From contig CAZZCM010000001.1 of assembly GCA_964652445.1 (NCBI GenBank), positions 1 to 28,659 of the forward strand: DNA of 28,659 nt. The letters run 5' to 3'. A program made the translations under genes and the position numbers. The notes below the pieces were generated by a model. The model did not search any database and was not told the DNA's origin. It was given only the letters and a program-made list of their open reading frames with translations. Source of the DNA: an uncultured Muribaculaceae bacterium (GTDB lineage Bacteria; Bacillota_I; Bacilli_A; RF39; UBA660). How positions within the stretch are numbered: the first letter of the stretch is position 1; each line of letters opens with the position of its first letter. Below, piece after piece: positions 18,013 through 22,566 of this stretch.

Positions 18013-18357
18013 TTATTTAACCTCTTTCTTTTTATAAACTCTACCTAAAATATAATAACAAATTAAAATCAGTGGAATTAAAATAACAAATCCTACCACT
18101 AATTTAATAATTAGTGAGTCAAAAAACTCTAATAAAGTTACCGTAATGGCAATTATAAACGCATTAACCAAAGATAAACTATTCGCAAATTTTTTATGAT
18201 TCAAATTTTCAATATCTAGTTTATAAGCATTTTTAAAAAACAATAATTGCTTACCTGTTTTAAAAGCCTCCAATCCTTTTTTTCGACTTACAATAACTAA
18301 GTAATAAACTAAATAAACGATTACAAAACAAATTAAAAATAAATAAACAAGTTCCAT
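18013..18357 (-). CDS. Small hypothetical membrane protein (about 3 TM) between the T-box and leuS
   Basis: SD AAAGGAGG; three hydrophobic stretches; TAA-t-ATG junction with leuS. Confidence 0.8.
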   Translation of the reverse strand: MELVYLFLICFVIVYLVYYLVIVSRKKGLEAFKTGKQLLFFKNAYKLDIENLNHKKFANSLSLVNAFIIAITVTLLEFFDSLIIKLVVGFVILIPLILICYYILGRVYKKKEVK

Positions 18358-18374: not shown

Positions 18375-18582
18375 AAAAAAGTATTATGTATAAGGGCGAT
18401 TTAATCGCGGTACCACCTTATTTCATAATACTTTATATTATCTCAAATGGTGTAACGTACCAAACGTCATATACTTATCATATAAGCAGCTCCTAAGTAA
18501 GTTCATAACCTATATTCAAAAGCTTTCACCAACCGCTTTTTCTCTAAAGAATAATCTAGTTACTACTACTCTTATTCATCGC
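18375..18582 (-). ncRNA. T-box leader, Leu (CUU) specifier
   Basis: Stem I with GA/K-turn (GAUGAA), AGUA/GAA S-turn, AGAGA and GGUGAAA motifs, specifier loop GAA-CUU-A (18499-18501), stem II, IIA/B pseudoknot (ACGU-UUGGU-ACGU...ACCA), T-box AAGG-UGGUACC-GCG. Confidence 0.92.
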
Positions 18583-18624
18583 ATTTCTTAAAACATTATA
18601 TTACATTTTTCAAATATGTTCAAT

Positions 18625-18653
18625 ATTGTATTAAAGTTTCTGATTTTTGTCAA
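18625..18653 (-). promoter_or_regulatory. SigA promoter of the T-box/leuS operon
   Basis: TTGACA-N17-TACAAT. Confidence 0.85.
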
Positions 18654-18665
18654 GACATAGTGGTC

Positions 18666-18690
18666 AAAATATAAGACATAAGCCTTATAT
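18666..18690 (-). terminator. Terminator overlapping the GH31 stop
   Basis: ATATAAGGC-TTAT-GTCTTATAT-TTT; short U tract. Confidence 0.55.
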
Positions 18691-21087
18691 TTCGTTAATA
18701 TATTCAAGTAACTTAATAAACATTTTAATAAACTTCTTATCAAGTCCTTTTTTCCCAAGTTTTCTAACTTCAATACGTTTCTTTTGAATTGTTAAATTAC
18801 TAAACAAAATGCCGTCTATTTCTTCTTTCATTTCCGTTGAAATTTGTAAGTCACTAATGATGCCTTCAATTTCACGATTAATTAAATGGACTGCATCAAT
18901 TTCAATGTCTTTCCCCTTACAATTTACAGTAAGTTGTCCAATCGTTTTAACATCATTGACTTCAACAATAAAATCAGGTCCATCAACATAAGTCTTAAAT
19001 GAAACTTTATCACGATTACTATAAACCTCAACATCATCTGTACGTTTAGTGTTTCTAAAAACAATCTTATAGTTTCTCTTTTCGGGAATAATTCCGCTTT
19101 TACCATCTTTCGCTCTAATAATTATACTGTAATTATTGGGCAAATAGTTGTATTCAATCTCTGTAAGCAAATAAAATCCCTTACGATATAAATCACTTTC
19201 GCCATCATCTTCAAATAATGTATAAGTATTACTTTTCCCAGGGAAAATTTGAATTTCCATATTATCTGGTGGTGTCGTATCATTTAAATCACTATTAGTT
19301 CCTAATGGAATAATCGCTCCTGACCTTGCGAATACGGGAAATTCTTCATCTCTAAAGAATGTAATATAATTTTTTCCACCAGGAAATTTCTTGCCCGTAA
19401 CAAAGTCGTACCATGTCCCTTCAGGAATGTAAAAGTTATGAACAACACGATTCATGACATAGTCTTTTCTCGATACTATTGGGCAAACAAGTAATTCTTC
19501 GCCAAAATAATATTCAGTACGATATAAAGCATCATCATAAAATTCTGGATTAGTCGCGTAAATTGGTTTAACTAAGGGCTTACCATATTTATGATACTTA
19601 TAAGCTTCACTATAAATATATGGAATCAGCTTATGACGTAACTGTAAATAATCTTTAACAATTGTATAAGTCTTAATATCCCAACGCCAAGGTTCACGTT
19701 TATAGTACTTACCTTTATCCACACCAAATTTCAAAATCGGTGAAAAAGTACCTAATTGAACAAACCTAATATAAAGTTCTTCATCCTCGACGCCTTTAAA
19801 ATATCCGCCAATATCATGGGACCAAAAACTAACGCCATTATTATAAGCTGAAGCGTTATAAAATGGAACTTTCTTTAAAGTACCCCAACTAACTACTGTC
19901 TTACCAGAGTATAAAACGGGATAACGATGCGCAGCCAAACGAACATCGGGCGCTAAAACCATTGGTCTACGCTTATAATCACGTTGCATGTCATAAAATT
20001 GATAATGTTTAAGCAAGGCATTCTCCGTCAAATTAACCTTATAATCGTAATCAAGCCAAAAGAAATCAATTCCCATTGTATCCAAAGGATGAATAAACAG
20101 TTTCAAATAAACATCAATAAATTTCGGATCATACACATTAAAAGGTATTTTCCCATCCTTATTTGCTTGTAAATATTTTAAGGCCTCTGCATAAAGTTTA
20201 TCATAATTATAAATTCCTTCGGTTGGATTAATATTGAGACCAAGTCTTATACCTTTTGAGTGTAAATAAGTAATCATTGCTGAAGGATTTTTAAATTTAT
20301 CATTATCAAAAGTAAAACCAGATTTCAAATGATATTTACCAGTATATGCCCTTTTATGCCAATCCTTATCAAGTAACAATATGGAAACTGGAATCTGCTT
20401 TCTATCGAAAGTATCAACTAACTCTTTAAGTTCCAAATCATCATAAGCCTCATTACGACTCCACCAATTTCCTAAAGCGTATCTTGGGATTAAAGCGGGA
20501 TAACCAGTAAGCTCATAATAATCTTTTAAAGCGTCTTCATAATCATTGCCATACATAAATAAATAAGTATCAATTACTCCTGGTTCTCTAGAGACTATTG
20601 TACCATCCTCGTTCCAAACAAAGTCAGTACTATCATCAATACTAGCCATACTATCAGCTGAATATAATCCTTTATCACTGGTGATGCCATCTTCTAAACA
20701 AATGGCTGGGATGCCAAAATTCCTAACTTCTGGATGACCATAATACCACACTTTGTCAGTTCCTAAAAGTTCAACTTTAAGATTCATTGTTGGATTAACT
20801 TTACTACCTTCAAATGGTTTTTCTTTAGTATAAGTAAGTTTAAAATATTCTGTTGAAATCTCTACAAAATGGTTATCATTTCTGGTTTTAAAATCTGGGA
20901 CCGCCAAATTTCTGTGTAAAATTAGCCCTGTCGGCTTATCTAAAAAACTGCCATTAGGATTATATTCAAGTCTAATCACTCTTGGTGATAAAACTGTAAA
21001 GCGATAGTTATTACCGCTTATAAGCGCACTATTATTAGGTACTGCACTTTTAAAATCAATTTTAAATTGTTCCCCCAAATTATACAT
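18685..21087 (-). CDS. GH31 (GH31_u1-like, DUF5110) glycosidase homologue with a degenerate active site
   Basis: PRYALGNWWSR, LDKDWH, FFWLDY, HRYP, WSHDIGG, REPW. Acid/base SGD is SGK and RLH is KFG. Start ATG at 21087 (SD AGGGGTG). Confidence 0.85.
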   Translation of the reverse strand: MYNLGEQFKIDFKSAVPNNSALISGNNYRFTVLSPRVIRLEYNPNGSFLDKPTGLILHRNLAVPDFKTRNDNHFVEISTEYFKLTYTKEKPFEGSKVNPTMNLKVELLGTDKVWYYGHPEVRNFGIPAICLEDGITSDKGLYSADSMASIDDSTDFVWNEDGTIVSREPGVIDTYLFMYGNDYEDALKDYYELTGYPALIPRYALGNWWSRNEAYDDLELKELVDTFDRKQIPVSILLLDKDWHKRAYTGKYHLKSGFTFDNDKFKNPSAMITYLHSKGIRLGLNINPTEGIYNYDKLYAEALKYLQANKDGKIPFNVYDPKFIDVYLKLFIHPLDTMGIDFFWLDYDYKVNLTENALLKHYQFYDMQRDYKRRPMVLAPDVRLAAHRYPVLYSGKTVVSWGTLKKVPFYNASAYNNGVSFWSHDIGGYFKGVEDEELYIRFVQLGTFSPILKFGVDKGKYYKREPWRWDIKTYTIVKDYLQLRHKLIPYIYSEAYKYHKYGKPLVKPIYATNPEFYDDALYRTEYYFGEELLVCPIVSRKDYVMNRVVHNFYIPEGTWYDFVTGKKFPGGKNYITFFRDEEFPVFARSGAIIPLGTNSDLNDTTPPDNMEIQIFPGKSNTYTLFEDDGESDLYRKGFYLLTEIEYNYLPNNYSIIIRAKDGKSGIIPEKRNYKIVFRNTKRTDDVEVYSNRDKVSFKTYVDGPDFIVEVNDVKTIGQLTVNCKGKDIEIDAVHLINREIEGIISDLQISTEMKEEIDGILFSNLTIQKKRIEVRKLGKKGLDKKFIKMFIKLLEYINEI

Positions 21088-21107
21088 GGCATTCACCCCT
21101 TATTATT

Positions 21108-22520
21108 CTATATTTCATCAATTTTCATAAAATTGGTATGTTTTACTTTCTTAAATGGATATCCACCGGTTACAATAACTTTATCACCTTTTTCAAGTTC
21201 CAAAGTCTTTTCCGCAATACTCATTGCCTTTGAAGCAATAGTATCAAAATCAAAGTCACCAATTGCGATTGGTAATACACCAAAATATAAATTTAAACTT
21301 CTAGCAACTCTTTCATTAGCTGCTGCCGCAATAATCATACATGGTGGCCTGAGTTTACTCATTCTTTTAGCTGTATATCCTGTATTTGTGGCTATAATAA
21401 TGGCCTTACAATCAAGGGTTATGGCCCCTAGTGCTACACTGCTTGCAATGGTTCCAGCAATATCCTTAGAATTAGTTTTCAAAGCTGAATTAAAATGATA
21501 ATCATAATCGATTGTGTTTTCAGCTGCTCTAACAATTCTTTCGACCTCTTTAACTGCTTCTGCTGGCTTAGTCCCGATTGTGGTCTCGCCAGTTAATAAA
21601 ATTGCATCAACACTTTCGGAAACTGAATTTGCTAAATCGGAAACTTCTGCACGACTTGGAACCACATCATTTGTTAAAAAGCTATCGAGTTCTGCGGTAA
21701 TAATGCTAATTTTCCCTTTTCCATGACATTTACGAATAATTTTACTTTTAATATTGGGTACTTCTTCAAGTGGTAGTTCAACAGCTAAATCACTACGGGC
21801 AAGCAAAATTCCATCAGCAACATCAATAATTCTGTCTAAAGATTTTACTGCTCTTTCATTTTGAATCTTGGCAATAAGTCCAATATGATCATTTTCTAAT
21901 TCAATAAGCATGTCATTTACTTCCATAATATCTTCAGCATCAGATACATTGGATATTTCAATAAAATCAACATCCATTTTATGAGCAAATAAAATATCCT
22001 CACAATCTTGCTTTGTTAAAAACTTACGATTAAGTTTTATTCCTGGTAAATACAGTTTAGAATGGCTAACAACTCGGCCCCCTTTAACTACTTCACAAAC
22101 GGCATAATCAAGGCCTTTTTCTACAACCTCTAATACAACTTTGCCATCCATAAGTTTAATAACTGAACGAAATCGTAAATCATCAATTAATTTCGGATAA
22201 TTTATTGAAAACTGAAACCCATTACAAATAGCTGGATTCATATACATTCTAATACGCTCACCAGTTTCAAAATCGGCGTAACCTCCTTGAAACTCCCCGG
22301 TTCTAATACAAGGTCCTTCTAAGTCAACCATAACCGAAATATTACTTCCCAGTTTTCTATTTATTTCATAGGTTTTTTCGATAACATCTCTACAAAATCC
22401 GTAATCAGAGTAACTCATATTAAGGCGAATTACATCAACGCCATTAGACACTAATTCCTCTAAAACTTCCATTTTATTTGAAGATGGTCCAATGGTTGCA
22501 ATTATCTTTGTCTTGTTCAT
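21108..22520 (-). CDS. pyk: Pyruvate kinase homologue with a degenerate catalytic site and a conserved allosteric C domain
   Basis: TKIIATIGPS, GPCIRT, AKIQN, ARSDL, SRAEVSD, TGET, TNTGYTA; colinear with PK over 470 aa. Confidence 0.85.
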   Translation of the reverse strand: MNKTKIIATIGPSSNKMEVLEELVSNGVDVIRLNMSYSDYGFCRDVIEKTYEINRKLGSNISVMVDLEGPCIRTGEFQGGYADFETGERIRMYMNPAICNGFQFSINYPKLIDDLRFRSVIKLMDGKVVLEVVEKGLDYAVCEVVKGGRVVSHSKLYLPGIKLNRKFLTKQDCEDILFAHKMDVDFIEISNVSDAEDIMEVNDMLIELENDHIGLIAKIQNERAVKSLDRIIDVADGILLARSDLAVELPLEEVPNIKSKIIRKCHGKGKISIITAELDSFLTNDVVPSRAEVSDLANSVSESVDAILLTGETTIGTKPAEAVKEVERIVRAAENTIDYDYHFNSALKTNSKDIAGTIASSVALGAITLDCKAIIIATNTGYTAKRMSKLRPPCMIIAAAANERVARSLNLYFGVLPIAIGDFDFDTIASKAMSIAEKTLELEKGDKVIVTGGYPFKKVKHTNFMKIDEI

Positions 22521-22537
22521 AGTATCACCTATTATCC

Positions 22538-22566
22538 ATTATACCAGTTTTCTCATAAATTTCCAT
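22538..22566 (-). promoter_or_regulatory. Extended -10 promoter of the pyk-like/GH31-like operon
   Basis: ATGGAA-N17-TATAAT with TG at -15/-14, downstream of the greA terminator. Confidence 0.65.

Follow-up and report, generated by a model that had tools for sequence, protein, structure and literature searches.

Among solved proteins of the glycoside hydrolase family GH31, the closest described system to the gene analysed here is LlGH31_u1 of Lactococcus lactis, an alpha-1,3-glucosidase known from the structures PDB 7WJ9-7WJF, in which Asp341 is the nucleophile and Asp394 the acid/base, the inactive mutant D394A having been used for complexes (Ikegaya et al., 2022; PMC9061262). In this enzyme His280 contacts the 6-OH of Glc-1, Gln343, His427 and Tyr99 of the neighbouring protomer form the +1 subsite, and the C-terminal helical domain mediates the contacts that build the hexamer (PMC9061262). 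The window considered here is the whole stretch of 28,659 nt of contig CAZZCM010000001.1 (assembly GCA_964652445.1, forward-strand positions 1 to 28,659), which has a G+C content of about 30% and carries nearly all of its genes on the minus strand; one of these, at 18685..21087, encodes a homologue of LlGH31_u1 with Lys in place of the acid/base Asp. Its product is best read, with a probability of about 0.7, as a cytoplasmic pseudo-glycosidase that would work by binding and in which constraint has moved from the sugar pocket to the C-terminal domains, a reading drawn from sequence comparison.

Dead glycosidase folds with new jobs are familiar mainly from eukaryotes, examples being the GH18 chi-lectins, the GH13-like ectodomain of CD98hc/rBAT, the GH1-like Klotho and alpha-lactalbumin with its lysozyme fold, in all of which a catalytic carboxylate was lost, selection was kept and the role became that of a lectin, transporter subunit, co-receptor or regulatory subunit. 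These proteins are eukaryotic and mostly extracellular, whereas the GH31-like protein is bacterial, cytoplasmic and near-core in reduced genomes. No report of a GH31 pseudoenzyme was found in the literature searched, and likewise none of a bacterial cytoplasmic one as a near-core gene.

Fold and active site of the GH31-like protein

The gene and its parts are given below, residue numbers throughout being those of the 803-amino-acid open reading frame (ORF) that opens at GTG at 21096.

18685..21087, minus strand: coding sequence of the putative GH31_u1-like pseudo-glycosidase, 800 amino acids from ATG at 21087 (ORF list and translation, Pfam, match to 7WJ9)
21096..21100, minus strand: Shine-Dalgarno sequence AGGGG, 8 nt 5' of the ATG (direct sequence reading)
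19609..20499, minus strand: TIM-barrel (A) domain with degenerate active site, residues 200-496 (Pfam PF01055; AlphaFold2 predicted local distance difference test score, pLDDT, 93)
18691..18894, minus strand: C-terminal four-helix domain, residues 735-802, basic (DSSP on the model; clade-specific conservation)
20050..20052, minus strand: codon of D349 at the nucleophile position, Asp341 of LlGH31_u1 (alignment to 7WJ9)
19900..19902, minus strand: codon AAG of K399 at the acid/base position, Asp394 of LlGH31_u1 (alignment to 7WJ9 and direct reading)
19948..19950, minus strand: codon of P383, in place of the Arg of the LSRY/FSRW motif (alignment to 7WJ9)
19723..19731, minus strand: codons of K456-F457-G458, in place of R-L-H of FSPxxRLH, with loss of the -1 subsite His (alignment to 7WJ9)

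The ORF spans 18685..21096 on the minus strand, with its stop codon at 18685-18687. The ATG at 21087 is taken as the true start because AGGGG lies 8 nt upstream, within the 20-nt spacer that follows the stop codon (21108-21110) of an upstream pyruvate kinase (PK)-like gene, because the GTG falls inside this Shine-Dalgarno sequence and because database homologues are 800 amino acids long. An earlier sequence-only reading of this stretch had placed the gene at 18685-21087, which is the coding sequence from the ATG, and had numbered its residues by the 803-amino-acid ORF. No signal peptide or hydrophobic N-terminus was found in the translation. Public annotation names the homologues only as 'DUF5110 domain-containing protein' or 'alpha-glucosidase (family GH31)'.

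Regarding family membership, the protein matches the TIM-barrel and C-terminal beta-domain models of GH31, with PF01055 at 175.3 bits (cut-off 23.5), PF21365 at 59.3 bits and PF17137 (DUF5110) at 47.1 bits, while the NCBIfam equivalogs for alpha-xylosidase (NF007940, 175.6 vs 606), MalA (NF040948, 138 vs 800) and alpha-glucosidase (NF007746, 55.9 vs 553) all stay below their cut-offs. The best solved relative by phmmer is LlGH31_u1 (7WJ9/7WJC), at an E-value of 5e-112 over residues 15-646. An AlphaFold2 model built from a 75-sequence alignment (pLDDT 93.2, predicted template modelling score 0.93) contains an N domain, the barrel, two beta-domains and four C-terminal helices, which DSSP places at 735-749, 754-764, 770-783 and 787-802; a Foldseek search with this model returned GH31 structures exclusively, with the four LlGH31_u1 entries on top (TM 0.82/0.90 over about 795 aligned columns) and well above other GH31 enzymes. 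The model and its matches thus show the extra four-helix domain after the distal C domain that is typical of GH31_u1, and the earlier recognition of a GH31_u1 type with a helical C-terminal domain was borne out by the alignment to 7WJ9, the model helices and Foldseek. The protein shares with LlGH31_u1 the domain order (N, TIM barrel, proximal C, distal C, C-terminal four-helix domain), a cytoplasmic location, the nucleophile Asp together with D243, W347 and D428, and the motifs HRYP, WSHDIGG and FSP. It differs in that its C-terminal domain is unalignable by sequence, basic and far better conserved within the clade, and in that the gene is without a sugar-utilisation context.

The active site was compared by phmmer alignment to LlGH31_u1, anchored by invariant flanks (HRYP..xSGx..SW). 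The nucleophile Asp on beta-4 is retained as D349 (FFWLDY at 345), and the acid/base Asp on beta-6, which belongs to the xSGD motif, is replaced by K399 (YSGKT at 396). The sole column in which the deposited wild type 7WJ9 (fsgD) and 7WJC with D394A (fsgA) differ is the column aligned to K399, and the AAG codon is two changes away from GAT or GAC. Around these positions, N215 aligns with the Tyr that follows WWSR (WWSRNE at 211 against canonical WWSRYW), I289 and N290 align with D and H of LNDHP (NINP at 288), K456 and G458 align with R and H of FSPINRLH, and a 4-residue gap downstream of the nucleophile replaces the segment after WQQG. The subsite residues of LlGH31_u1 are replaced as well, His280 by N290, Gln343 by D351, His427 by Y432 and Tyr99 of the neighbouring protomer by T113, with P383 at the LSRY Arg and G458 at the RLH His. 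Each observed element of the earlier claim that the acid/base Asp had become Lys and that -1 subsite residues were lost was therefore confirmed by alignment, position check and codon reading.

Two alternative acid/base residues were considered and rejected, D384 on account of its variable column (G56/D28/N25) and D428 as the ordinary WSHDIGG Asp common to all GH31 proteins. No other conserved carboxylate was found at the acid/base column of the family alignment. With the acid/base Asp gone and no conserved carboxylate to substitute for it at that column, the two-Asp retaining mechanism of GH31 is not possible, as had been argued from the single sequence.

Distribution and constraint across the family

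Among the 120 closest database clusters (64-100% identity), column 399 is K (116), N, R or Q and in none of them D, and the nucleophile column is S or N in 11 of the 121 sequences formed by these clusters and the query. Over 265 distinct family sequences the acid/base column holds K in 214, E in 10, R in 9, S in 9, N in 6, H in 5, Q in 4, D in 4 and a few others, and the nucleophile column holds D in 235, N in 16, S in 7, K in 4 and E in 3, the Asp being lost in 30. Since the acid/base column is non-Asp in 261 of the 265 distinct relatives, K399 is beyond chance or a sequencing slip, which upholds the earlier argument from the codon that AAG does not reflect a single-base error. A search made exhaustively over representatives at 50% identity brought up distant relatives (about 39-51% identity) whose two catalytic columns are each occupied by a variety of residues, and fully canonical GH31_u1 sequences (WWSRYW, IDMDWH, LNLHP, WW.DWQQ, FSGD, RLHS) start at about 38% identity.

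The window genome (0.94 Mb, 94% complete) has a single GH31-like copy. In a survey of genomes in its taxonomic order, one match was detected in 131 of the 149 genomes of one family (0.6-1.6 Mb), representing 74 of 86 genera. Named relatives include 'Firmicutes bacterium CAG:822', Candidatus Coprosoma intestinipullorum and many 'uncultured Bacilli/Tenericutes' metagenome-assembled genomes from the gut, the hosts being humans, rabbits, ruminants and chickens; Coprosoma corresponds to the GTDB genus CAG-822 of the order RF39, family CAG-822 (PMC8035907). A single in-frame stop was seen in two of 132 genome copies (G120:C37:2314-4746 and G093:C2:158998-161418), the rest being stop-free.

Across the class Bacilli, a match was present in 29 of 34 genomes of the RF39/CAG-822-like family, in contrast to 21 of 266 genomes from other families. 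The canonical GH31_u1 homologues, from other Bacilli and from metagenomes, resemble the GH31-like protein in length and Pfam architecture at 33-39% identity; the 14 that were checked from other Bacilli families are nevertheless canonical at every motif listed above, and what they conserve lies mainly in the pocket and barrel, not in the C-terminal domains. In a maximum-likelihood tree, one branch with a Shimodaira-Hasegawa-like support of 93 divides the degenerate sequences (the pseudo-clade) from the canonical set, a topology that would fit a single ancient loss of catalysis. The taxonomic contrast is the stronger argument, since the tree groups are partly defined by the trait itself.

One genus (L024-L026; G107, G079, G114) has a very divergent orthologue of 33% identity that keeps both Asp columns and has almost wholly lost WWSRYW, DMDWH, WSHDIGG and RLH. 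The route to degeneracy thus differs among lineages.

Regarding selection, comparison of the GH31-like gene with its 90%-identical homologue L044 gave a ratio of nonsynonymous to synonymous substitution rates (dN/dS) of 0.062 at a dS of about 1, the values for neighbouring genes being 0.118 (PK-like), 0.131 (greA) and 0.132 (U32 peptidase). In 95 of the 97 loci with a PK homologue alongside, the GH31-like protein is closer to the copy in the window than the adjacent PK is (mean identity 67% vs 54%).

The regions of the protein were compared in sequence pairs matched at 38-50% overall identity. The barrel (A domain) is better conserved among canonical sequences than within the pseudo-clade (0.54 vs 0.43), and the 17 pocket positions far more so (0.97, more exactly 0.974, vs 0.47), whereas the opposite holds for the N domain (0.36 vs 0.43), the proximal C domain (0.41 vs 0.54), the distal C domain (0.27 vs 0.44) and, most of all, the C-terminal domain (0.16 vs 0.44). 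In distant orthologues the entropy of the pocket cannot be told apart from the barrel average (1.80 vs 1.86, P 0.39), and two positions of the pocket, 351 and 383, show extreme variability among close orthologues too, with an entropy of 2.8 for the column of P383. Clade-specific conserved residues cluster at 462-501, in both C domains and in the helical tail, where they include G728, E732, D749, L750, T754, K773, R774, K779, L780 and F793. Net charge over the last 39 residues is +7 in the query, with a median of +6 in the clade and of 0 in canonical sequences. An operational definition of a pseudoenzyme, as an enzyme homologue without an essential catalytic residue that nevertheless persists in the phylogeny under purifying selection, would describe the protein, given K399, a dN/dS of 0.062, presence in 131 of 149 genomes and pocket conservation at background.

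Possible functions of the remodelled protein

The favoured course of events would begin with a single loss of catalysis by a GH31_u1 alpha-1,3-glucosidase in the ancestor of the RF39/CAG-822-like gut Bacilli family, the gene being afterwards inherited vertically as a near-core single-copy gene. The sequences show that the five-domain fold is retained, that the acid/base Asp has gone and that -1/+1 subsite residues have changed; among orthologues the two catalytic columns and the remaining positions of the old sugar pocket drift at background rate, although the protein overall is under strong purifying selection, and constraint is raised on the distal C domain and the basic C-terminal four-helix domain. 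Such a protein would presumably no longer hydrolyse alpha-glucosides and would most likely serve as an oligomeric scaffold or regulatory particle with its functional surface in the C-terminal half and basic tail, the putative partner being either another protein or something anionic, for example nucleic acid or membrane, and in the query's subclade it would be co-expressed with the PK paralogue. Because the acid/base residue is lost and yet the gene is kept under strong selection in almost all family members, a new non-hydrolytic job is probable. The sequence-only reading had suggested an inactive glucan-binding or scaffold protein, of which the scaffold part fits best, constraint having moved to the C-terminal domains; the glucan-binding part did not stand, as the sugar pocket is family-wide no better conserved than the barrel and neither PF00128 (GH13) nor PF00343 (GT35) was found in the 94%-complete window genome. 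A more elaborate picture, in which the GH31-like protein is the shell of an oligomeric particle whose basic C-terminal bundles attach to nucleic acid, to membrane or to a client protein, and which in the query's subclade joins a degenerating PK paralogue in a two-pseudoenzyme system for metabolic sensing or structure, is tentative and on balance doubtful.

Several observations weigh against a scaffold with an abandoned pocket. The gene is missing from 18 of the 149 family genomes and is thus not indispensable; the sequence pairs used in the regional comparison are not independent; and the canonical group was picked partly by four of the pocket columns, without which pocket identity is still 0.965 vs 0.51. 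Among close orthologues, the pocket (D243, W347, D349, K399, D428, K456, G458) has an entropy of 0.64 vs 0.99 for the barrel (P about 0.05), so that in the query's subclade the remodelled pocket may have a ligand-binding or an unusual catalytic role. E437 (19786-19788, minus strand) is found in 262 of the 265 sequences of the pseudo-clade and is variable in canonical GH31_u1; the alignment would make it the N-cap residue of helix alpha-7, nine positions past D428, and it may pair with K399 or K456. The first of these roles would make the D349/K399/K456 pocket of the subclade a binder or sensor of an anionic sugar (alpha-glucose-1-phosphate, a sugar phosphate or a nucleotide sugar), with the two new lysines contacting the phosphate and the metabolite level being reported, perhaps to the neighbouring PK paralogue. 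The conservation of K399 (95%), K456 (97%) and G458 (96%) among 79 close orthologues, the retention of D243, W347, D349 and D428 of the -1 subsite and the PK homologue that immediately precedes the gene in 97 loci all speak for this role; it is nonetheless unlikely, given that in distant orthologues the pocket is at background and K399 and K456 give way to a wide range of residues, that positions 351 and 383 vary freely even in close ones, and that most of the listed genomes without a PK homologue keep the GH31-like gene.

The catalytic alternative is quite improbable. It would have D349 form a glycosyl-enzyme from donors with a good leaving group (glucose-1-phosphate or natural donors resembling a glycosyl fluoride), with K399 stabilising an anionic leaving group or E437 acting as a relocated acid/base, in a phosphorylase-, transferase- or lyase-like reaction. 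A precedent exists in a GH3 enzyme that turned phosphorylase after its acid/base carboxylate became His, and the retention of D349 in 235 and of K399 in 214 of the 265 sequences, as well as the clade-specific E437, would suit it. However, N, S, K or E occupies the nucleophile position in 30 of the 265 intact and conserved orthologues, the -1 sugar has lost the Arg and His by which it is held, conservation of the pocket is at background family-wide, and the alignment would put E437 on a helix cap. The sequence-only reading had raised a glycoligase- or lyase-like variant with activated donors; the drift of both catalytic columns across orthologues weakens this proposal, which retains some room in the D349/K399 subgroup. 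That the protein is an active alpha-glucosidase with misassigned residues, or that the gene is a decaying pseudogene or an artefact of sequencing or assembly, has next to no likelihood. Apart from the public annotation nothing was found in its favour: the invariant flanks and the pair of wild-type and D394A structures anchor the alignment, the same substitutions recur in hundreds of independent assemblies, and the ORF is intact, with a dN/dS of 0.06 and in-frame stops confined to two genome copies.

If the protein is a pseudo-glycosidase, as favoured here, genomes of 0.6-1.6 Mb spend 2.4 kb on it and constrain it more tightly than its glycolytic neighbour, which points to a probably important function in an uncultured and widespread gut lineage. 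Automatic counts of carbohydrate-active enzymes would credit RF39/CAG-822-like genomes with an alpha-glucosidase that is almost certainly absent from them. The clear contrast between canonical sisters and the pseudo-clade, where the pocket was freed and the C-terminal domains became constrained, would make the family a good system for the study of how TIM-barrel enzymes are repurposed.

Genomic context and the pyruvate kinase neighbour

Regarding the surroundings of the GH31-like gene, the following features were located in the window.

21108..22520, minus strand: PK paralogue of 470 amino acids, the upstream gene (Pfam 243 bits; altered catalytic motifs, with KIQN for KIEN, DLEGPCIR for DTKGPEIR and ARSDLA for ARGDLG)
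22538..22565, minus strand: promoter-like site TGGAAA-16-TATAAT with TG, 5' of the PK-like gene (consensus scan alone)
18625-18653, minus strand: promoter-like site of the next unit (consensus scan, 11/12 match)
18389..18588, minus strand: T-box leader (Rfam RF00230, 136.7 bits against a gathering score of 93)
18013-18357, minus strand: small predicted membrane ORF of 114 amino acids, abutting leuS

The GH31-like gene is apparently the second gene of a two-gene unit behind the PK-like gene on the same strand, and the promoter-like site at 22538..22565 likely marks the start of this unit; the T-box and the promoter-like site at 18625-18653 mark its end. In many relatives a conserved copy of the small ORF likewise separates leuS from the GH31-like gene, so that the T-box appears to control the small membrane protein together with leuS. 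The flanks of the GH31-like gene contain neither a sugar transporter nor a regulator.

A near-full PK homologue was present in the flanks of 97 loci, and in every one of them it is the immediate upstream neighbour, in the same orientation. The upstream gene varies among 20 orthologous loci of greater distance, where it encodes VanY, a class I W/Y tRNA synthetase, a GT4 glycosyltransferase or proteins without an assigned family, and two upstream ORFs of about 450 amino acids among them are not PK relatives; the small ORF and leuS stay downstream in most of these 20 loci. An obligate partnership with PK was rejected on account of this variation of the upstream gene. The PK link is real for one subclade and not obligatory. 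In the order as a whole, no PK match was detected in 56 of 151 genomes, and most of the listed PK-less genomes still hold the GH31-like gene.

The motifs of the PK-like protein in the window read KIQN, DLEGPCIR and ARSDLA, in contrast to KIEN, DTKGPEIR and ARGDMG in the PK of S. aureus (3T05), and this copy is the only PK found in the window genome. Many relatives have an adjacent PK paralogue scoring 151-366 bits and a second PK elsewhere scoring 340-393 bits, and in three family genomes without the GH31-like gene the PK motifs are canonical. The relatives considered for the adjacent PK were G130, G025, G022, G050, G075, G118, G127, G146, G143, G149 and G076. A complex prediction for the PK-like protein with residues 500-803 of the GH31-like protein returned a score of 0.00, which gives no answer and speaks neither for nor against binding.

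The adjacent PK paralogue of G149 (G149:C2:35221-36182) contains two stops; these, like the in-frame stops of the two GH31-like copies mentioned above, could be due to local decay or to assembly errors. A 68%-identical relative (L021:10763-11881, on a contig of 1.39 Mb) has an inserted IS605 OrfB/TnpB-like gene that separates the leuS unit from the GH31-like gene.

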